A program made the position numbers and the translations under genes. The notes under the pieces were generated by a model that was not told the DNA's origin, did no database searches, and saw nothing but the letters and a program-made list of their open reading frames with translations. 64,000 bases of DNA from Escherichia phage vB_EcoM_EP57, in the sequence record OR544956. One strand, given 5' to 3'. This document shows, piece after piece, positions 20,406-58,039 of the stretch; position 1 is the stretch's first letter, and the number at the start of each line of letters is the position of its first letter.

Positions 20406-20688
20406 TGATCGTTTGTTTCTTCTTCTCTAAATCTGCTTTTAATTGTGCATTGTTTTTAGACAAGTTGTTTATTTGAGTATTTAATAATGCTCTTTCTTCA
20501 TCTGCTCTTTTTTGAAGAACATCAAAATCTTGTTTTGCTTTTGCTTGGGCTGCTTGATATACTTGCGTTTGATAGGCAACACCATCTTTGTAGCCAGACT
20601 CACGTATCTTGTTATAAGCAAACATTCCGGCAAGAATAAGAACAACAATTAAAACAAAACTTAATACAGTTTTAGTCTTTAGATTCAT
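20296..20688 (-). CDS. i-spanin-like protein
   Basis: 130 aa, N-terminal transmembrane helix then charged coiled-coil region. Confidence 0.45.
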   Translation of the reverse strand: MNLKTKTVLSFVLIVVLILAGMFAYNKIRESGYKDGVAYQTQVYQAAQAKAKQDFDVLQKRADEERALLNTQINNLSKNNAQLKADLEKKKQTINEDTTNYAKTNSGSMSCFAPNDDGLFIINKSFPSSY

Positions 20689-20887
20689 TATCTTCTACTT
20701 CCTCATAAAATTTTATTTTAGGAAGAGAAGGGGCGTTGTTAACTATCTTCTTCACTTCCATTGGTTGAGCCTCCGCTAGGATCTCTTCCCAAGTCTTCTC
20801 TGTCATCATAAAGTTCTTCCTCCAAGTTCCAAGCCCGTGTGTAATCATTCTTTTTATCTTTATGATAAGAAGAACGGTTAAAATCAT
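20672..20887 (-). CDS. hypothetical protein (start uncertain; a 56-codon ORF with strong RBS at 20742..20909 overlaps in another frame)
   Basis: 71-aa track ORF; GAGGAGG precedes the alternative ATG at 20909. Confidence 0.2.
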   Translation of the reverse strand: MILTVLLIIKIKRMITHGLGTWRKNFMMTEKTWEEILAEAQPMEVKKIVNNAPSLPKIKFYEEVEDNESKD

Positions 20888-21049
20888 TTTTAACTACAAA
20901 ATTGCGCATATTTTATCCTCCTCATATCTGATCTTATCACAAAATGATATATAATTGCAAGCATTAAAAATAAAAAAGCCCCTAACCTTTCGGAGAGGGG
21001 TGTTAAAAATAACAAGGAGGAGGGGCAAAGCCCCAAGAGAGGAGAGGGA

Positions 21050-21346
21050 TTAGATTACGATCTTTTTAGGAACGTCATCTGTATTCTGCACGGCAGGGGT
21101 TTCTTCTTCCATAGCTTCATAATGTTCTTCTAACCATTCTTCTACTTGCTCTTTAATAGCTTTAGCTGCTTGGAAGCGGAGAGGTTTTGCTGCATCCTTA
21201 TCATTAACAAGTTCAACAATATACCGCATAGCTTCTAAATAATGCTCTGCAAATAATTCTTTTACACTTGCTTGCGCCGCATCCATTGCGTAAATCTGTT
21301 GCATTTCGGCTGTTGGTCTTCCACGACCACGTTTTAGTTTAGGCAT
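21050..21346 (-). CDS. hypothetical small basic protein
   Basis: 98 aa, N-terminal KLKRGRGRP; own promoter and RBS. Confidence 0.35.
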   Translation of the reverse strand: MPKLKRGRGRPTAEMQQIYAMDAAQASVKELFAEHYLEAMRYIVELVNDKDAAKPLRFQAAKAIKEQVEEWLEEHYEAMEEETPAVQNTDDVPKKIVI

Positions 21347-21368
21347 AATAAAATCCTCCTAAACTTTA

Positions 21369-21396
21369 TCTTAACATATAAAAAATAATAAGTCAA
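21369..21396 (-). promoter_or_regulatory. sigma70-like promoter upstream of 21050..21346
   Basis: minus strand TTGACT - 16/17 nt - TAAGAT, then AGGAGG RBS. Confidence 0.35.
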
Positions 21397-21413
21397 GTTT
21401 TATTCAATAGATA

Positions 21414-21437
21414 GCAAAAAGCCTCCAATAAGGAGGC
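21414..21437 (-). terminator. rho-independent terminator closing the tRNA operon
   Basis: minus strand GCCTCC-TTATT-GGAGGC followed by TTTTT. Confidence 0.6.
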
Positions 21438-21553
21438 TAATAAATACTGTTAAGTTGAAATGCTTTATTATAATTGTGCGTTAAGGAGTCGCACCCCTCC
21501 ATCTTAGAAGGAACCAGGCAAGGTCTTCAAAGATACCGCTGGCAAGCGATATT

Positions 21554-21632
21554 TGGAGGCGGGAATTGGATTTGAACCAATGATCTCCAGCATATGAAAC
21601 TGGCGAGGACGACCAGACTCCTCTATCCCGCT
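21554..21632 (-). tRNA. tRNA-Met (anticodon CAT), CCA encoded
   Basis: hand-folded cloverleaf; T arm ATTGG-TTCAAAT-CCAAT; anticodon loop TTCATAT; A1:C72 mismatch noted. Confidence 0.5.
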
Positions 21633-21638
21633 ATTATG

Positions 21639-21710
21639 TATCCCGTGCTGGATTCGAACCAGCATCACAATAAGCTGTGGAACTCTTATCCTGTAAGTCT
21701 AACGGGAAAC
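21639..21710 (-). tRNA. tRNA-like element, anticodon not resolved (possible pseudo-tRNA)
   Basis: T arm GCTGG-TTCGAAT-CCAGC and acceptor-like ends, but no canonical anticodon arm found by eye. Confidence 0.25.
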
Positions 21711-21784
21711 TGGTTGTTTCGACAAGAATCGAACTTGTGTCTCACGATTATCAGTCGTGGGTTCTACCATTGAACTACGAAACA
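21711..21784 (-). tRNA. tRNA-Ile (anticodon GAT), CCA encoded
   Basis: acceptor TGTTTCG/CGAAACA, D arm GTTC-AATGGTA-GAAC, anticodon arm CACGA-CTGATAA-TCGTG. Confidence 0.65.
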
Positions 21785-21790
21785 TTAAAT

Positions 21791-21867
21791 TGGTCGGAAT
21801 TGCAGGATTCGAACCTGCGACCCTACGCTCCCAAAGCGTATGCTCTACCAAACTGAGCTAAATTCCG
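21791..21867 (-). tRNA. tRNA-Pro (anticodon TGG), CCA encoded
   Basis: acceptor CGGAATT/AATTCCG, D arm GCTC-AGTTTGGTA-GAGC, anticodon arm TACGC-TTTGGGA-GCGTA. Confidence 0.65.
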
Positions 21868-21960
21868 TCATAACATTCTAAAGGTACACCGCAAAAGAAA
21901 GTGTTCGGCGGCTCCTCGTTTTTAACTTCACACTTGAGGTAGTGACTCACCTTTGTTATA

Positions 21961-22036
21961 TGGCTGGTCTGTCTGGATTTGAACCAAACCTACGACAGTC
22001 AAAGTGTCGTGTGCTACCGGACTACACTACAAACCA
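21961..22036 (-). tRNA. tRNA-Gln (anticodon TTG), CCA encoded
   Basis: anticodon arm CGACA-CTTTGAC-TGTCG; T loop TTCAAAT; acceptor pairs with one G-U. Confidence 0.55.
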
Positions 22037-22134
22037 ATAAATCATTTAATGAAGGGCAACCAGAAGAGGTGTGAGAGAAGGAGAAAACCATGAGTAAAAG
22101 AGAAAGTTTTCTGGCAACCCTTTATTAAATAATT

Positions 22135-22208
22135 TGGAGCGTTCTACGAGGATCGAACTCGTGCCGCCGACTTGGAAGGACGGAATGCTACCGCTACACC
22201 AAGAACGC
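22135..22208 (-). tRNA. tRNA-Gly (anticodon TCC), CCA encoded
   Basis: acceptor GCGTTCT/AGAACGC; anticodon loop CTTCCAA; T arm ACGAG-TTCGATC-CTCGT. Confidence 0.5.
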
Positions 22209-22219
22209 CCTACATCTTT

Positions 22220-22249
22220 ACTATACTACATTTTACTATTGGTTGTCAA
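22220..22249 (-). promoter_or_regulatory. promoter with AACTATTGACAA element, start site just upstream of the tRNA at 22208
   Basis: minus strand TTGACA - 18 nt - TATAGT. Confidence 0.45.
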
Positions 22250-22438
22250 TAGTTTTATTGAGTGGGACAGTGACGAGTATCCCGTTGGGTGACTAGCCCT
22301 ACGTTCGGTAAGCTAACTTAAAATAATACAAAACCAAAGTCAAATATTATTCTTCGTTGCTGTCGATGGGAGAGCCGCTTCTCATTTTGCCCCATCCAAC
22401 CCTACTCCGGTCAAGTTTCGGGTAACTCTTTTTGTGTG

Positions 22439-22527
22439 ATCAACACAATACTAAGAACACTGTCTTTCGAACAGACCTTGTGCACAGGATACGACGATCA
22501 ATCACAGTGCTCTTAATGTTGTGTTGG
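22439..22527 (-). ncRNA. tRNA-like degenerate element (GTTCGAA loop, 8-bp terminal pairing), not a canonical tRNA
   Basis: ends CAACACAA/TTGTGTTG pair; internal hairpin with TTCGAA loop; no cloverleaf could be completed. Confidence 0.2.
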
Positions 22528-22599
22528 TGCTCCCACACTGAATCGAACAGAGATCCACGGATTACAAAACCGTTGTAATAGCCATTATACTATAGGAGC
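22525..22599 (-). tRNA. tRNA-Thr (anticodon TGT), CCA encoded
   Basis: acceptor GCTCCTA/TGGGAGC (one G-U); anticodon loop TTTGTAA. Confidence 0.45.
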
Positions 22600-22605
22600 A
22601 AAGCT

Positions 22606-22682
22606 GGGACTCGGCAGGATTCGATACCTGCAATTCCAGAAGCCTCTTGGCGACTGGGGGTTTACCTTAACTCTACAAGTCC
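22606..22682 (-). tRNA. tRNA, anticodon not resolved by eye
   Basis: acceptor GGACTTG/CGAGTCC pairs; T-arm-like GCAGG-TATCGAAT-CCTGC with 8-nt loop. Confidence 0.3.
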
Positions 22683-22689
22683 ATAATTC

Positions 22690-22775
22690 TGGCGATGAGT
22701 ATAGGATTTGAACCTATATCGTTCTTTCGAACACGGATTAACAGTCCGCCGCTTAAACCATTCAGCCAACTCATC
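22690..22775 (-). tRNA. class II (long variable arm) tRNA with apparent anticodon GTT
   Basis: acceptor GATGAGT/ACTCATC; anticodon arm GCGGA-CTGTTAA-TCCGT; variable arm GTTC-GAAA-GAAC; T arm ATAGG-TTCAAAT-CCTAT. Confidence 0.45.
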
Positions 22776-22781
22776 TTAATT

Positions 22782-22869
22782 TGGTGGTGAGTGATGGAGT
22801 TGAACCACCCGAATCGCAATGATAACAGATTTACAGTCTGCCCCGCTACCCCTACGGAATTAACTCACC
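22782..22869 (-). tRNA. tRNA-Tyr (anticodon GTA), class II, CCA encoded
   Basis: acceptor GGTGAGT/ACTCACC; anticodon arm GCAGA-CTGTAAA-TCTGT; T arm GGTGG-TTCAACT-CCATC. Confidence 0.6.
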
Positions 22870-22947
22870 TAAATACTAATATTTAAATTCTTTTTAAAAT
22901 AGCCAGTGTTCACACCACTAACTATGTAAGCCATATTAAAAAGAACT

Positions 22948-23033
22948 TGGCGGTAGATGTAGGACTCGAACCTACACGCCGTTTCCGACTACAGTTTAGC
23001 AAACTGTCGTGGCTACCATTTCACCAATCTACC
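22948..23033 (-). tRNA. tRNA-Ser (anticodon GCT), class II, CCA encoded
   Basis: acceptor GGTAGAT/ATCTACC; anticodon arm ACAGT-TTGCTAA-ACTGT; long variable arm. Confidence 0.6.
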
Positions 23034-23038
23034 TAATC

Positions 23039-23129
23039 TGGCGGAAGGAGGGAGAGTCGAACTCCCAAGGCTCTTTCAAGCTCGGCGGTTTTCAAGACCG
23101 TTTTCGTCGCCACGTCGATTTGCCCTTCC
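23039..23129 (-). tRNA. tRNA-Ser (anticodon TGA), class II, CCA encoded
   Basis: acceptor GGAAGGG/TCCTTCC; anticodon loop CTTGAAA; long variable arm; T arm GGGAG-TTCGACT-CTCCC. Confidence 0.5.
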
Positions 23130-23138
23130 ATACTTATA

Positions 23139-23167
23139 ATCTAACATAAAATAATGTTTGTTGTCAA
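23139..23167 (-). promoter_or_regulatory. promoter with AACTATTGACAA element, start site at the tRNA-Ser 5' end
   Basis: minus strand TTGACA - 17 nt - TTAGAT. Confidence 0.4.
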
Positions 23168-23363
23168 TAGTTTTTTAAAACATTTTACCATGAATGGTGA
23201 CTCCACCAACCCCCGTTCTCCACGAACGGTGCTCTTCGAGCATTTATGTCTTCTAATATAACCGTGGCCTTTGTTTATAATGTCTGACATACTTGCCTCA
23301 TTCTCTGCCACCATGATCAGTAGTGGGTTCAAATTACTTGAGCTAATTCATGTTAAAATGTTC

Positions 23364-23438
23364 TGGTGTCTTTACAAGGAATCGAACCTTGACTAAGAGT
23401 TTAGAAGACTCCTGTGCTATCCATTACACCATAAAGAC
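23364..23438 (-). tRNA. tRNA-Arg (anticodon TCT), CCA encoded
   Basis: acceptor GTCTTTA/TAAAGAC; anticodon arm GGAGT-CTTCTAA-ACTCT; T arm CAAGG-TTCGATT-CCTTG. Confidence 0.6.
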
Positions 23439-23440
23439 GT

Positions 23441-23515
23441 TGGTGGCCCTGGCTGGTTTCGATCCAGCTACCTATCGGTTATGAGCCGACAGCTCTCCCA
23501 TTGAGCTACAGGGCC
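23441..23515 (-). tRNA. tRNA-Met (anticodon CAT; could be fMet or Ile2), CCA encoded
   Basis: acceptor GGCCCTG/CAGGGCC; D arm GCTC-AATGGGA-GAGC; anticodon arm GTCGG-CTCATAA-CCGAT. Confidence 0.6.
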
Positions 23516-23520
23516 ATAAA

Positions 23521-23712
23521 TGTGGTAACAGAGACGCTGACGATTGTAGAGAACCGCTACATTCTCTAAGACCAAGCCCAACTTTCAGCGTAAAAGTTCT
23601 TGAGCCGAGACTGTTCCTTTTCCTCTTTGGTAGCTAACCTCTGAAGAAGTAGTCTCTAACACTACCGCAGTGCAAGCCCCTCTTAACAAAAGTCAACGAC
23701 ACTGTTACCACA
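23521..23712 (-). ncRNA. candidate structured stable RNA (~190 nt) at the 5' end of the tRNA transcript
   Basis: perfect 11-bp terminal helix (5' UGUGGUAACAG / 3' CUGUUACCACA), internal hairpins, no long ORF, begins at the predicted start site of the 23725..23754 promoter. Confidence 0.4.
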
Positions 23713-23724
23713 CTTGATGAACGT

Positions 23725-23754
23725 ATCCTAACATATGAAGGATACGTTTGTCAA
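23725..23754 (-). promoter_or_regulatory. promoter with AACTATTGACAA element heading the tRNA operon
   Basis: minus strand TTGACA - 18 nt - TAGGAT; 6-bp inverted repeat GTATCC/GGATAC overlaps the spacer. Confidence 0.4.
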
Positions 23755-23761
23755 TAGTTAT

Positions 23762-24010
23762 TTAAGCATATTCTGCTACTTCTTCACTATCTTTCTTTTC
23801 CAGAAGAGCAACAACCAAAGCTTCTGCGTTAAAAGTATTAATTTCAAGATCCATCTCTCGCATCAGAGCCAAGAAATCAATAACTTTAACATCTTTAGTG
23901 ATTACAATAGAAGTTGTACCATTGTTTTCAGATGTGTATTTTTCTGGATGGAAAAGAAAAACTGCATTGCCGTTACCATCTTCAAACACGTGTTTTTCTA
24001 ATAGAGACAT
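23762..24010 (-). CDS. hypothetical small protein
   Basis: 82-aa ORF, first minus-strand gene left of the divergent region. Confidence 0.35.
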   Translation of the reverse strand: MSLLEKHVFEDGNGNAVFLFHPEKYTSENNGTTSIVITKDVKVIDFLALMREMDLEINTFNAEALVVALLEKKDSEEVAEYA

Positions 24011-24018
24011 TGTTCCTC

Positions 24019-24270
24019 CTAATCTGTTAGTTGTTCGTCCTCTACCAAGTTTGACACGAGAACGTCTGTTATATATTGATGCTGATAAACCCTTTCGGGA
24101 CTATCATCAAAAGCCAAACCTGTGCAAATAGAACAGAGGTCTGATTCCTTGATGACTCCATTTTTATCACGTCTGGAGTGGTTTGTCAAATGCCTATTAC
24201 AAGCACGGCACCTAAAATAAAAGCTATTTTGCATATATCCTTCGAACCCCAAATGGGGAGTGATCGGCAT
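24019..24270 (-). CDS. hypothetical zinc-ribbon protein
   Basis: 83 aa with paired CxxC (CRACN ... CSICTG). Confidence 0.35.
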   Translation of the reverse strand: MPITPHLGFEGYMQNSFYFRCRACNRHLTNHSRRDKNGVIKESDLCSICTGLAFDDSPERVYQHQYITDVLVSNLVEDEQLTD

Positions 24271-24307
24271 CTCCTCACTTCTAGTTTAGCACGAAGGATA
24301 TCTTAAG

Positions 24308-24505
24308 TCAACTAGGAATAATTTTATCCCTTTTGGTTTCATAACCAGTCCAATCTAAATCCTCCCAGCCTTCATCATCGTCTAACACATTGTCATCATC
24401 ATAAGATGCAATGTTATAAATAGAACGTGGATTACAAGACATACAATCTTTAATAGGCACATGATGCCATTTGCACGGATTCTCACTAATCATTGCACAC
24501 CTCAT
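24308..24505 (-). CDS. hypothetical Cys-rich acidic protein
   Basis: 65-aa ORF adjacent to the AT-rich divergent region. Confidence 0.3.
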   Translation of the reverse strand: MRCAMISENPCKWHHVPIKDCMSCNPRSIYNIASYDDDNVLDDDEGWEDLDWTGYETKRDKIIPS

Positions 24506-24519
24506 CTATAGATCAAGTA

Positions 24520-24690
24520 TTATTTATAATAATTTATTATTTTATTTTTAATTGATAGAAGTTGATCTGTACGTACCAGTTCTGATACACTGTACCTGTT
24601 TGTTAGATCTAATAATTATTTATTATTAATATTTAATAATTATTAATCTAGTACGGAGTACAGTACTTGAGTACAGAGTACTACATCAAC
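24520..24690. repeat. AT-rich iterated region between divergent transcription units (AATAATTATT repeats, GAGTACAG direct repeats, GTACGTAC and AGTACT palindromes)
   Basis: AATAATTATT at 24611 and 24635; GAGTACAG at 24656 and 24669; AGTACT twice; no ORF. Confidence 0.5.
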
Positions 24691-24915
24691 GACCTAAAAC
24701 CTTAACTCGCTGCGCTCGTTAATAGATTTCTAGGGTAACATACTTCGAACACAAAAGTCAAGAGTTTTATTAAAAATTATTTTCTGTGTGCAAAAACCTT
24801 GCTTAAACAGGTAGCAATAGTATTAAGAGGCTGTAGAGCAAGTTTACTTACTAGGTAAGGTGATTTATCATCTTATATATAAAAAGTGCGTCAGAGACGC
24901 GTTTAGGAGGCTAGA

Positions 24916-25332
24916 ATGAGATTTACAAGACAAGAGGTAGTTGTACTTGACGAAGCAATGACAATGATCGTCTTTTACTATGAGGATATCTTCTGTGCAG
25001 CATATCATTTAAATGATATTCAGATTGAATGGAAGCAGATAGCATTCCTGTTGGACAAGAGTAATCATTTGGATGGCTTTGAGTATTTGGAGTGGGATGG
25101 TGCAAAGGAAGTTAAAATTGTAGGGTTAAATCACGATCAGATTGTTGACATGCAATGTAAGTTGTGTCATTATCAGTTCTCAAACAATCCTGGCAACAAT
25201 TGTTCTGATTTTTGCCATGTGTGTGGTTCACGATGTTCTGGTAAGCTACTTTTGAAGACACAAGATGTGTCCTACAGCCGTGTTACGCTTACTGGCGACC
25301 ATACCCCAATCATGGAGTACGTAAAGAAATGA
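24916..25332 (+). CDS. hypothetical Cys-rich protein
   Basis: 138-aa ORF, AGGAGG RBS, CxxC pairs (CKLCH, CHVCGSRC). Confidence 0.45.
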   Translation: MRFTRQEVVVLDEAMTMIVFYYEDIFCAAYHLNDIQIEWKQIAFLLDKSNHLDGFEYLEWDGAKEVKIVGLNHDQIVDMQCKLCHYQFSNNPGNNCSDFCHVCGSRCSGKLLLKTQDVSYSRVTLTGDHTPIMEYVKK

Positions 25333-26132
25333 GCAACTATCCAATTACAGGCGTAACCTATTCTTGTGTAGCAAAAGGTGGTTTATATACAGTAGTGGAA
25401 TTTCCAAAACCTGCCGGAATATCTAAAGTGTTTGATCCTGTGGTTATCTATGAAGATCTTAGAACAGGTCAACGTTACTGGAGATTTGTGAATGACTTTT
25501 TAGATCGTATGGAGGTAGTAAGTGGCGAAAACACCGAAGAAGTTATCAAAGCCAACGTTACTAAGAAACCGAAAAACGAGGTTCTCAAAGTAGCCAAATC
25601 AGTTCCTAAGAAAGATAAATTTGATACGGAGGCATTCGTCTTTGACACACCAATCGAGAAGATTGAAGAAGCGTTGCAACGTCTTGAGGAGCAGGAGGCA
25701 GATCCAATGGCTGAACCACTCGCTGAAGCAAAAAACATTGGTCGTTCCAATGAAACAACACCAGAAGAACAAGCTGAACTTGAAGCTTTTGCCAAATGGA
25801 CAAAACAGTTAAAGAATGGCTATTATAAAACAAAAGAAGAAGCTGAAAACCATGTTCCTTCCACACCAATGAAATGCCAGGATTATAAAGATTATCCTGA
25901 AAGGGTTGTGTTCCCTGGTTATGCACAATACAAACTGAACGGGTTACGTTCTATGATTAACATGAAAGGAGAGTGTTTATCAAAAGCTGGGGAAGTGTAC
26001 AACCTGCCACCTCATTGGAAAGGTATTCCAAACTTTATTAGTGAAGTTGTTGGTCATCCTCTTGATGGTGAAGTGTTTGCTGGGTTAGGTGTCCTTAGTC
26101 TGCAACAAATTAACAGTGCTTGCAGTAGTTGA
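25329..26132 (+). CDS. ATP-dependent DNA ligase-like nucleotidyltransferase, N-terminal part (motifs I and III); apparently split from 26089..26592
   Basis: KLNGLR (motif I, KxDG-like) and LDGEVF (motif III); frame ends 16 codons after motif III. Confidence 0.45.
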   Translation: MSNYPITGVTYSCVAKGGLYTVVEFPKPAGISKVFDPVVIYEDLRTGQRYWRFVNDFLDRMEVVSGENTEEVIKANVTKKPKNEVLKVAKSVPKKDKFDTEAFVFDTPIEKIEEALQRLEEQEADPMAEPLAEAKNIGRSNETTPEEQAELEAFAKWTKQLKNGYYKTKEEAENHVPSTPMKCQDYKDYPERVVFPGYAQYKLNGLRSMINMKGECLSKAGEVYNLPPHWKGIPNFISEVVGHPLDGEVFAGLGVLSLQQINSACSS

Positions 26133-26592
26133 AGATTATGGTCTTGATGAGCTTATTTGTGTAGTTCATACAGAGTATATTGAAAACCAAGAACAGTTTG
26201 ATGCTTTCTATGAAAAAGCTTTACTTGAGAAAGCTGAAGGTGTAGTATATCGTAATGCTCACGGAGTTTACGAATTTGATAAACGTTCTTATGACGTTAT
26301 TAAACGTAAGCCTCGCCATACGCTTGAAGTTAAAGTAATAAATTCAAAAAGTGATAAAAATGGCGATGGAGTGTTGACAGGTGAGATGGAAAATGGTAAA
26401 GTAGTCGAATTCTTAATGCGTAAAGATGCTCATGAGACTATCAATTATCGTAAAGCAGAGAATGCTTCTACCTTGATTAATCAGTTCGTTGAAATAGAGT
26501 ATGAAGAATTTTCAGATGAAGGTATTCCAACAAAACCTGTTGGTGTTCGTATTCGAGAAATGATCCCAGGCACTTGGGAACCAGCAGAATAA
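26089..26592 (+). CDS. DNA ligase-like nucleotidyltransferase, C-terminal part (motifs IV and V), +1 frame relative to upstream ORF
   Basis: EGVVYR (motif IV) and DVIKRK (motif V); GTG start directly after an in-frame TAG, no RBS. Confidence 0.45.
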   Translation: MSLVCNKLTVLAVVEDYGLDELICVVHTEYIENQEQFDAFYEKALLEKAEGVVYRNAHGVYEFDKRSYDVIKRKPRHTLEVKVINSKSDKNGDGVLTGEMENGKVVEFLMRKDAHETINYRKAENASTLINQFVEIEYEEFSDEGIPTKPVGVRIREMIPGTWEPAE

Positions 26593-26837: not shown

Positions 26838-27551
26838 ATGATCGAGAATTTTTTTAAAGATATTAAATTCGATACTGAATTTTTCAAAAATGCAGCAAAG
26901 CACGTAATTGATTGGAATGCCAAAGCACGAGGTGGTGAACAACCTGAATTCACTCAAGAGCTATTTATGTCCCAAATCGGGTTCGTTCGTGAAGAGCTTA
27001 AAGAGTATGAAACAGCCGCGAAAGTAAACGATCATGTAGAACTCTTGGATGCAGCAGCGGATATTTTTGTAGTATCCAGTTATCTTACTTACATGTTCTT
27101 TGGTGAAGAACATACGATGAATTTCTTGGACTATGCTGTAGGCGATGTTTTTACTCCAACTGTGTATACTGATTTTGATGCTTTGGAACAAACATTTACA
27201 GAGCCAGTTCAAATGGCACTAATGGCTGCTGGTATTATGCGTATGTCTCGTGACACTCTAATCCGTTCAAAATATCCAGAAAAGAAAGTTATTAAAGAGG
27301 TATTGAAAAGTAATGATTCCAAGTATCCAACTAAACAACAGTTGCTGAAAACTTGGAAAACTTCGGATATCGATTCAGCCATTGCACAAGAATGCGCTGC
27401 AATTGAAGAACGAAATGCCAATCGTCCAGAAGGGGCATACACTGGTGTTCATGCTGTTTATAATGAAAAACAGAAAGTGTATGTGTTCTTTGATGATAAA
27501 GGTAAGATCATGAAACCATCGACCTTTGTCAAACCTAATATTAATAAGTAA
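26838..27551 (+). CDS. hypothetical protein (weak MazG-like all-alpha NTP pyrophosphohydrolase resemblance)
   Basis: 237-aa ORF with RBS; REELKEYE...LLDAAADIFVV pattern. Confidence 0.3.
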   Translation: MIENFFKDIKFDTEFFKNAAKHVIDWNAKARGGEQPEFTQELFMSQIGFVREELKEYETAAKVNDHVELLDAAADIFVVSSYLTYMFFGEEHTMNFLDYAVGDVFTPTVYTDFDALEQTFTEPVQMALMAAGIMRMSRDTLIRSKYPEKKVIKEVLKSNDSKYPTKQQLLKTWKTSDIDSAIAQECAAIEERNANRPEGAYTGVHAVYNEKQKVYVFFDDKGKIMKPSTFVKPNINK

Positions 27552-27607
27552 TGTTGTAAGCCGCCCTTTATGGGCGGTAATGTGAGATGTATTAAATAGG
27601 AGGAAAC

Positions 27608-57661: not shown

Positions 57662-57829
57662 GAATCAGCATTGACTTTTTCAAAAAAATATGGTACCCTA
57701 AACATATGTTTACGAGCGATAGCGAGTAGTAGATTTCTATATAATAATGTTTCATGTTACTCACGATAGTGAGGTATGAAACGTAAGTGAAGGTAGATAA
57801 ACTATGATCATCTATCTACCATCTATTAA

Positions 57830-58039
57830 TCAATATAGATCTAATGTTAGACTAACAGTTATCCAACAAACAATAGCAGTCCATATAACAAGTAATGATC
57901 TACAAACTACATCCCATTCAAATACATTGTATGTTAACCATTCTCCCATCACAACAGAAGAACCCAACCAACATCCAACAATAACTATAATCCAATAAAA
58001 GAATCCTACAGTAGAGTATACAGCAAAAGCTTTTAACAT
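57830..58039 (-). CDS. small membrane protein
   Basis: 69 aa, two hydrophobic segments. Confidence 0.3.
   Translation of the reverse strand: MLKAFAVYSTVGFFYWIIVIVGCWLGSSVVMGEWLTYNVFEWDVVCRSLLVIWTAIVCWITVSLTLDLY

Follow-up and report, generated by a model that had tools for sequence, protein, structure and literature searches.

We analysed 64,000 nucleotides of Escherichia phage vB_EcoM_EP57 (sequence record OR544956; this whole stretch, numbered from its first letter, is referred to as the window) and, within it, the gap of approximately 420 bp that lies between two large gene blocks. The window belongs to the genus Phapecoctavirus, the phAPEC8-like coliphages of the subfamily Stephanstirmvirinae, and the 2.2 kb around the gap are 96–98% identical to SKA64, ukendt, tuntematon and about 60 other phages. 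On the minus strand, the left block comprises three small genes of unknown function followed by 10–12 tRNA genes and then by genes for the spanins, large terminase, portal and capsid. On the plus strand, the right block begins with small genes and continues with those for DNA ligase, exonucleases, a DNA-polymerase exonuclease subunit, thymidylate synthase (ThyA) and ribonucleotide reductase (RNR). An initial annotation, made from the letters of the window, had described the gap as parting a leftward from a rightward gene block, which the open reading frame (ORF) map, tRNA scan and PHROG matches bear out, and had proposed that it is either a replication origin or a regulatory hub with divergent promoters. 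The first leftward gene most likely starts at the ATG at 24493 and not at 24505, in agreement with the annotations of tuntematon, ESCO13 and phAPEC8; the intergenic region is therefore 24494–24915. The features of the locus, together with a related element elsewhere in the window, are listed below.

24308–24493, minus strand: first leftward gene, 61 aa, phrog_26411, of unknown function; ribosome-binding site (RBS) GAGGTG from 24503 to 24498
24494–24915: intergenic region between the leftward and rightward units, delimited from ORF maps, tRNA scan, PHROG matches and the annotations of relatives
24511–24516, minus strand: TTGATC, remnant -35 element of the predicted promoter P_L2, placed by alignment and by a position-weight matrix (PWM) scan of relatives
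24515–24558: AT tract 1, 44 bp, 93% AT, between the back-to-back -35 hexamers of P_L2 and P_C
24562–24591, plus strand: predicted promoter P_C, with -35 TTGATC (24562–24567), 18-bp spacer, TG (24583–24584) and -10 TACACT (24586–24591); PWM rank 44
24601–24610: TGTTAGATCT motif, kept in alia, Tr1 and phiWec-type phages
24607–24649: AT tract 2, 43 bp, 95% AT, internally palindromic, found only in Phapecoctavirus
24650–24682: GTAC array, five AGTAC units at 24650, 24657, 24662, 24670 and 24677
24702–24722, minus strand: leader hairpin box TTAA-CGAGCGCAGCGAG-TTAA, with an invariant core at 24706–24718
24732–24761, minus strand: predicted promoter P_L-core, with -35 TTGACT (24761 to 24756), 18-bp spacer, TG (24740 to 24739) and -10 TACCCT (24737 to 24732); PWM rank 39
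24843–24871, plus strand: predicted promoter P_R of the DNA-metabolism operon, TTTACT-17-TATCAT; PWM rank 177
24888–24900, plus strand: hairpin GCGTC-AGA-GACGC in the P_R leader, 4 nt before AGGAGG (24905–24910), with the ATG at 24916
57671–57735, plus strand: second promoter-hairpin module of the window, TTGACT-17-TACCCT-AAACATATGTTTA-CGAGCGATAGCGAG

Four predicted promoters occupy the same positions in five lineages

The locus was aligned among 11 Phapecoctavirus genomes and across five lineages, namely Phapecoctavirus, phiWec188/179, Justusliebigvirus alia, Klebsiella phage FKP3 and Citrobacter phage Tr1, with relative 536P1 (149.5 kb) serving as the complete-genome reference. This revealed that the sequence has largely diverged between genera and that islands remain at -35 and -10 elements, the AT tract, the box, the hairpin and the RBS. 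When scanned with a sigma-70 position-weight matrix, for which ranks refer to 127,930 positions in the window, these islands proved to coincide with four predicted sigma-70-type promoters, recovered at the same positions in all five lineages, a result that supports the proposal of a regulatory hub with divergent promoters.

P_L2 reads TTGATC-17-TACAGT in Phapecoctavirus relatives and TTGACT-17-TAGAGT, TTGACC-17-TACACT or TTGACC-17-TAGTAT in the other genera; its -10 element and start site are gone from the window through a 40-bp deletion at 24503|24504. In phiWec188, alia, FKP3 and Tr1, P_C has counterparts of the forms TTGATC-18-TACTAT, TTGTTA-17-TAGTAT, TTGATT-17-TATAGT and TTGTAA-17-TAGTAT. 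For P_L-core, which is predicted to start transcription near 24725, the other four lineages have TTGACT or TTGACA, a spacer of 17–18 bp and TACCCT in every case. P_R is invariant within the genus and is represented by TTGACA-17-TATCAT in FKP3 and TTGACT-17-TACCAT in Tr1. Among the 11 Phapecoctavirus genomes the right half of the alignment (24690–24915) is nearly invariant and the AT tracts vary in length; the deletions private to the window are the 40-bp deletion above and one of 20 bp near 24823, between P_L-core and P_R. A further promoter candidate between P_L-core and P_R, TTGCTT-16-TATAGC, was not counted, as its -10 is poor and it is hit by the 20-bp deletion; in phiWec188 it is replaced by a different promoter and an inserted ORF. 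Phages of the phiWec type have an extra 70-aa ORF between P_L-core and P_R (1659–1871 in phiWec188), equipped with a strong predicted promoter of its own, TTGTGT-16-TGcTATAGT.

The inverted repeat GCGTC-AGA-GACGC, reported in the initial annotation just before the first plus-strand RBS, is present at 24888–24900 within the predicted 5' untranslated region of the rightward operon. Across six lineages this hairpin shows compensatory change at three of its five pairs, with GCTC/GAGC in alia and Tr1. An Rfam scan of 20500–26000 at E ≤ 1 returned no covariance-model match inside 24494–24915.

The AT tracts are the least stable duplex of the genome

The AT-richness of the region had been described as a single stretch of about 130 bp with more than 85% AT. 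While the region is AT-rich, positions 24506–24650 are 81% AT and resolve into two tracts separated by a 48-bp segment of 60% AT. The repeat units AATAATTATT assigned to this stretch were found at 24611 and 24635, and the palindrome GTACGTAC, which had been placed after the AT-rich part, actually lies between the tracts at 24569–24576, inside the 18-bp spacer of P_C. Tracts 1 and 2 contain the only 40-bp windows with at least 38 of 40 A+T positions, both in the 64-kb window and in complete 536P1. By nearest-neighbour calculation they are also the least stable 40-bp duplexes (-34 and -36 kcal/mol versus a mean of -51 ± 3.3), and over 150 bp the locus has a stability of -156 kcal/mol against a mean of -192 ± 7. 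It thus lies approximately five standard deviations from the mean at both scales and is the global minimum of the genome.

An AT tract of 45–55 bp is found exactly between the -35 elements of P_L2 and P_C in all five lineages. Tract 1 ends 3 bp before the P_C -35 and abuts that of P_L2, and its placement is the same in the other four lineages, as expected for a promoter-upstream (UP) element, an A+T-rich block at about -40 to -60 that requires only about 20 bp. Tract 2 can be matched to tract 1 in direct as well as in inverted orientation and is variable in length between strains; Tandem Repeats Finder (TRF) reports period-7 and period-17 repeats within it. In the record of the relative nieznany, the deposited ends overlap and disagree by an 81-bp deletion that covers AT tract 1 and GTACGTAC, reflecting either population heterogeneity or an assembly break in a repeat.

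A genus-specific GTAC array in a GTAC-depleted genome

Tract 2 is followed by AGTAC units spaced 5–8 bp apart. The initial annotation had read this stretch as GAGTACAG direct repeats 13 bp apart and two AGTACT palindromes; the former are present at 24656 and 24669 and the latter at 24662 and 24677, and both are sub-readings of a single array. GTAC is depleted four-fold, with 56 copies versus 225 expected in the window and 137 versus 528 in 536P1. At the locus there are eight copies in 115 bp (Poisson P about 7e-14 to 1e-13), and 9–10 in relatives, making this the sole cluster in 536P1 with at least four GTAC per 200 bp. No cluster of GATC, the Dam sequence, was seen at the locus, where its three sites are about background (284 GATC per 64 kb). 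The GTAC units overlap the -10 of P_L2 as well as the spacer and start region of P_C, and the array sits in the P_L-core leader.

Conservation of the repeats in related phages, on which the initial annotation had made its reading depend, holds within the genus and ends at its border. In 61 of the 64 Phapecoctavirus records the segment holding the array keeps an identity of at least 95%, and the array is missing in phiWec-type, Justusliebigvirus and Tr1 phages, which retain the remaining architecture. In BI-EHEC and KKP3954, most of the array GTACs are mutated to GTAT or ATAC. BI-EHEC has lost seven of the eight GTAC sites inside the region and also 15 of the 28 window sites outside it, which shows no special protection of the local ones in that phage; the array is dispensable for a viable phage. 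The GTAC purge in BI-EHEC is genome-wide and has proceeded almost entirely via GTAC>GTAT/ATAC transitions, leaving 0.38 GTAC per kb (30–80 kb) versus 0.88 per kb in the window. Several short palindromes are avoided in the window, with observed-to-expected ratios of 0.25 for GTAC, 0.18 for CCGG, 0.26 for CGCG and 0.27 for GGCC, and this avoidance together with the BI-EHEC purge suggests ongoing restriction avoidance or methyl-cytosine decay.

Two further readings of GTAC were rejected. A phage-encoded GTAC methyltransferase, raised by a "Dcm" note in the Schickermooser record, has no Pfam support among the window ORFs, and a role as a subfamily-wide promoter operator was dropped, GTAC being undepleted in other genera (9–14 per 4.2 kb). 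The units are best read as putative genus-specific binding sites or as slippage products, not as iterons. RNA folding of the overlap between P_C and P_L-core (z = -2.9 on the minus strand and -0.9 on the plus strand) was not used as evidence, since it reflects mostly trivial palindromic AT and GTAC self-pairing.

P_L-core belongs to a family of promoter-hairpin modules

P_L-core and its box are one copy of a module composed of TTGACT, a 15–16-nt spacer, the extended -10 sequence TATGnTACCCT, about 13 nt, and the box CGAGCG-N(1-2)-AGCGAG, which falls approximately 10 nt past the predicted start site. Three modules are found in 536P1, at 145970(+), 107344(-) and 74792(-), and two in the window, at 24761(-) and 57671(+); three are likewise present in each of three full-length Stephanstirmvirinae contigs from IMG/VR. 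The extended box occurs three times per genome where 0.2 occurrences are expected. One module copy precedes a co-directional gene with a 110-nt leader. The module at 57671–57830(+) is antisense to its neighbour genes and is followed by hairpins at approximately 57750–57782 and 57793–57821, with no ORF, and its transcript may be a small RNA.

Comparison of 16 module copies revealed that variation in the box is confined to the central N(1-2), which is A, C, AT, GG or AA, with all other box positions invariant. The flanks of the box pair with one another, giving 41 contiguous pairs where 16 ± 5 are expected, a value reached in 0 of 5000 permutations; this makes the box the tip of a hairpin, which would form in a single strand and start a few nucleotides past the predicted 5' end. 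The bare GCGNAGC motif and the octamer GCGNNAGC are not enriched in the phage genome and occur there at chance frequency. An exact 22-mer search of IMG/VR returned one contig only, and the many matches from degenerate box searches were GC-rich chance occurrences or came from one unrelated lineage. That lineage, an abundant metagenomic phage group of about 25 IMG/VR contigs, carries TACCCTATCCCCCCCAACGAGCGAAGCGAGTGGG, which is the same box after TACCCT without a sigma-70 -35 element, and has an inverted pair of it near the end of one contig.

The box resembles plasmid and phage priming sites

A string search of the literature found the plus-strand 13-mer CTCGCTGCGCTCG of the box in published vector sequences, which pointed to plasmid backbones. 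In pMB1-type plasmids the sequence CGAGCGCAGCGAGT is identical to the phage box over 14 nt; with the RNAI gene as landmark, it maps about 150 bp downstream of the origin, adjoins a DnaA box and is on the strand displaced by leading-strand synthesis. In p15A-type plasmids the box differs only at N (N=T). The F–G intergenic region of phiX174, the location of its primosome assembly site (n'-pas), has AAGCGAAGCGCGG on the viral strand, matching the phage box at 12 of 14 positions. In ColE1, the single-strand initiation site ssiA, an n'-pas, has been placed downstream of the origin, where it is exposed and has a dnaA box nearby; the pMB1-type match falls broadly in this position. In the plasmid and phiX174 sites the G-rich sense is on the strand that becomes single-stranded, as it is for the phage box. 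However, the common part is only the 13–14-nt core and not the plasmid hairpins of about 70 nt, and the arm with which the plasmid box pairs has no counterpart in the phage, whose box has its own short flanking stem.

Mini-hairpins of the type GCGNAGC or GCGNNAGC are known at the priming sites of G4, St-1, alpha3 and RSF1010 ssiA, and at N4 promoters (Hirao; reviewed in PMC13037366). The box centre at our locus, GCGCAGC, fits this consensus; GCG-N(1-2)-AGC is found in every phage box copy, and variation, including the one- versus two-nucleotide length, falls only at the loop N. Unlike the mini-hairpin, the conserved unit of the phage is longer (CGA...GAG), allowing a C-G pair and tandem G.A. 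Taken as a comparison of sequences, the likeness of the box to the plasmid and phiX174 priming sites is a resemblance only, and a hairpin at the 5' end of an RNA would explain its position equally well.

A probable promoter hub and its alternatives

We propose, with a probability of about 0.7, that the region is a central transcription-control hub, in which compound, interdigitated divergent promoters serve the host sigma-70 RNA polymerase. The architecture, its statistics and its conservation are as described above; from these we infer the promoter activity, the start sites, the role of the AT tract as UP element and the function of the hairpins. The leftward P_L2 and the rightward P_C would stand back to back around AT tract 1, which would act as a shared, UP-like and easily melted element and would gather the negative supercoils of divergent transcription. 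P_L-core, about 200 bp to the right, would face P_C over AT tract 2 and the GTAC array, a facing zone of about 125 bp, and P_R, with its small 5' hairpin ahead of the RBS, would launch the DNA-metabolism operon. This layout gives each gene block one near and one far predicted promoter, and the far promoters would consequently transcribe through each other. The box hairpin most likely acts in the nascent RNA, as a stabiliser, a factor site or an antitermination site; alternatively, it might act in the displaced DNA strand. A less conventional reading is that it represents a new sequence class of processive antitermination signals akin to nut and put.

Divergent and UP-dependent regions of this kind are known from rrnB P1-type promoters and from the face-to-face pR/pL switch of coliphage 186. 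The region shares with them consensus-like -35 elements, 17–18-bp spacers, an extended -10 TG, TAnnnT -10 sequences and an A+T tract just upstream of the -35 elements at the junction of opposed modules. It differs in that four promoters are interdigitated within 420 bp and in that its AT tracts, at 43–44 bp and 93–95% AT, are much longer than UP elements and have no equal elsewhere in the genome. RNA hairpins close to a promoter, which either modify the polymerase or protect the mRNA, include the lambda nut boxB, HK022 put and ompA-type 5' stem-loops. Like these, the box is a conserved stem-loop transcribed, by prediction, approximately 10–30 nt from a specific promoter class, in several copies whose lower stems covary; unlike nut and put, it has no same-strand boxA partner and no known N/Q-like protein, and its sequence is unrelated. 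The authors of the rV5 study expected bidirectional promoters at such junctions.

Several points weigh against a hub. All four promoters are predictions, and a literature search found no transcriptome, start-site or expression data for Stephanstirmvirinae phages. The score of P_R is modest here (8.8 bits) and weak or unclear in alia. The window lacks the P_L2 -10 and a further 20 bp, which means that parts of the hub are dispensable. Promoters by themselves also leave unexplained the extremity of the AT tracts, the retention of GTAC and the invariance of the box over 12 nt.

On another reading, the AAT/ATT repeats, tract 2 and the GTAC array serve no function of their own and are low-complexity DNA, prone to slippage and duplication, that is tolerated between promoters. 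We regard this as possible though on balance doubtful. The region is an indel hot spot, to judge from the 40- and 20-bp deletions of the window and the 81-bp disagreement in nieznany; tract lengths differ in BI-EHEC, Schickermooser, KKP3954 and phAPEC8, tract 2 contains the period-7 and period-17 repeats reported by TRF, and tract 2 and the array are specific to the genus, the latter being lost in viable isolates. Neglect, however, would hardly retain 8–10 GTAC in 190 bp of a genome holding this tetramer at 0.25 of expectation, several of these GTACs overlap elements of P_L2 and P_C, and an AT tract lies at the same position in every lineage. The locus is extremely unlikely to be a genome terminus or a packaging site (pac or direct terminal repeat), even though some pac sites look similar in having short motifs clustered around bendable AT DNA and the nieznany record begins here. 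The start of that record is an untrimmed assembly overlap, and records of these phages start at many different places. Schickermooser has a reported 328-bp terminal repeat, and the locus lies about 54 kb from the start of its record, which would be its distance from the genome end if the record begins at the terminus, a point that its paper does not state; in that phage, the junction has the DNA-metabolism genes on one side and the tRNA and structural genes on the other.

An origin of replication was the other reading offered by the initial annotation, which had pointed to iterons next to an AT-rich tract. In its classical form, as in lambda, P1 and theta-type plasmids, an initiator would bind the GAGTACAG and AGTACT repeats and melt the adjoining AT tract. 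Clustered short repeats do adjoin an extreme AT tract at a unique genomic locus, the array is kept in 61 of 64 Phapecoctavirus records, and the global minimum of duplex stability is what an AT-rich unwinding element would call for, but the remaining parts of such an origin are lacking and we consider it very improbable. No phased iterons of 17–22 bp, initiator gene or excess of DnaA boxes were found at the locus: the units are 5 nt long and irregularly spaced at 5–8 bp, with a single pair of 12-mers 20 bp apart, and TRF reports no array at the GTAC units; the neighbouring genes encode 61–138 aa without a Rep-like PHROG or Pfam match; one DnaA box is present versus 1.4 expected per 500 bp, along with one single-mismatch IHF match versus about 0.9 expected per 500 bp and zero Fis matches. 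Outside the genus the array is missing, and within it BI-EHEC and KKP3954 have lost it. GC skew was rejected as evidence for any origin, as its minimum coincides with the strand switch and it flips again at the next switch near 54 kb; following the direction of transcription, it is fully explained thereby, and the rV5 authors reported the same skew pattern.

An origin activated by transcription, which would be compatible with a hub and with all of the observations, fares somewhat better and is nonetheless unlikely in our estimation. By analogy with known systems, transcription from P_L-core, from the divergent P_L2 and P_C, or from both would open the AT tracts and lead to an R-loop, and the CGAGCG-N-AGCGAG hairpin of the displaced strand would serve as a single-strand initiation or primosome-loading signal. 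Parallels exist in ColE1 (ssiA, with RNA II), in the phiX174 n'-pas, in T4 oriF and oriG, where a promoter and a downstream unwinding element yield an R-loop primer, and in the primary origin of T7, which has two promoters and an AT-rich segment. As in T4, T7 and ColE1, a conserved promoter points towards AT-rich DNA of exceptional instability, and the phage would not need a dedicated initiator, whereas the promoters here are plain sigma-70 and not MotA-dependent or read by a phage RNA polymerase, and the AT tract is also a candidate promoter-upstream element. P_L-core would read into tract 2 about 75 nt downstream and then into tract 1, in an arrangement that is conserved, and so aims at the weakest duplex found in the genome; the other two modules are likewise followed by relatively unstable DNA (top 0.1–1% or so, before correcting for the choice of window). 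The likeness of the box to the pMB1-type, p15A, phiX174 and other priming sites fits this model as well. It has to be set against the pairing arm missing in the phage and the chance frequency of bare GCGNAGC. The flanking stems, moreover, contain G-T pairs and begin 2–5 nt from the predicted 5' end, which suits an RNA 5' hairpin at least equally, one module merely precedes a gene, and the GC skew is accounted for by transcription. That the three TACCCT-promoter and box modules of each genome are the replication origins of the Stephanstirmvirinae, with an R-loop and an ssi-like hairpin that loads a helicase-primase, is an extension by analogy that we hold to be similarly unlikely; were it correct, initiation from the copy at this locus would be aimed at the two duplex segments of lowest stability in the genome. 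A transcription-primed origin would also partly vindicate the initial annotation.

Returning to the promoter hub, a hub is itself an ordinary kind of element, and what is new here is that a promoter-hairpin module occurs in three copies and that its box is identical to sequence near a plasmid origin. Our literature search found no description, for these phages, of the region, of the TACCCT promoters as a class or of the box, nor any promoter map, origin or regulatory circuit for Phapecoctavirus or Justusliebigvirus, two genera that are widely isolated for therapy against pathogenic E. coli. An anonymous 420-bp gap is turned into a testable map with the coordinates of four predicted promoters, a shared AT core, a putative three-copy regulon conserved across the subfamily and a candidate for the start of replication, on which the natural 40-, 20- and 81-bp deletions reveal dispensable parts. 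If the box is a priming or antitermination signal, it would represent a new sequence class and would connect the priming signals of plasmids and microviruses with a large lytic myovirus. Should it do no more than stabilise the 5' end, the region would still be of use, both as a supply of strong phage promoters and in guiding safe engineering of the genome.

Neighbouring genes and additional promoters

The first rightward ORF, 24916–25332, encodes 138 aa in the window and corresponds to two genes (107 and 38 aa) in relatives; compared with 536P1, the window has small deletions of 64 and 134 bp here, by which the two genes were fused or altered. Farther right, 5.3 kb of 536P1 are missing from the window at 25721/25725; in relatives this segment carries genes for RNA ligase, polynucleotide kinase and a metallophosphatase together with small genes. 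Many smaller deletions relative to 536P1, of 107, 140, 681 and 185 bp, were found as well (sites listed at 26122, approximately 26608, 27514–27592 and 22533–22604), and the DNA ligase of the window appears N-terminally fused and split into two ORFs (25329–26132 and 26089–26592). To the left of the region, a homologue of the first leftward gene in Seunavirus is not syntenic and was uninformative.

In the tRNA block, Rfam detected two tRNA-like genes missed by ARAGORN (listed sites 22785–22869, 23043–23129 and 21413–21467), which are probably tRNA-Tyr and tRNA-Ser(TGA), as annotated in ASO2A between the same neighbouring tRNAs, as well as a weak match resembling RyhB that stays below threshold (E = 0.054). 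Along the small-gene and tRNA block, a series of sigma-70 promoters with an extended -10 and close to consensus is predicted on the minus strand, with -35 elements at 24311, 23754, 23167 and 21396, so that the tRNAs would be independent of the hub. A separate series lies in 536P1 at approximately 83.5–90.7 kb, where at least seven promoters of the form TTGACA-N14-TGnTAAnAT occur and six of seven are followed by a GGGCGG...CCGCC-type hairpin; this family probably represents early promoters with 5' stem-loops.

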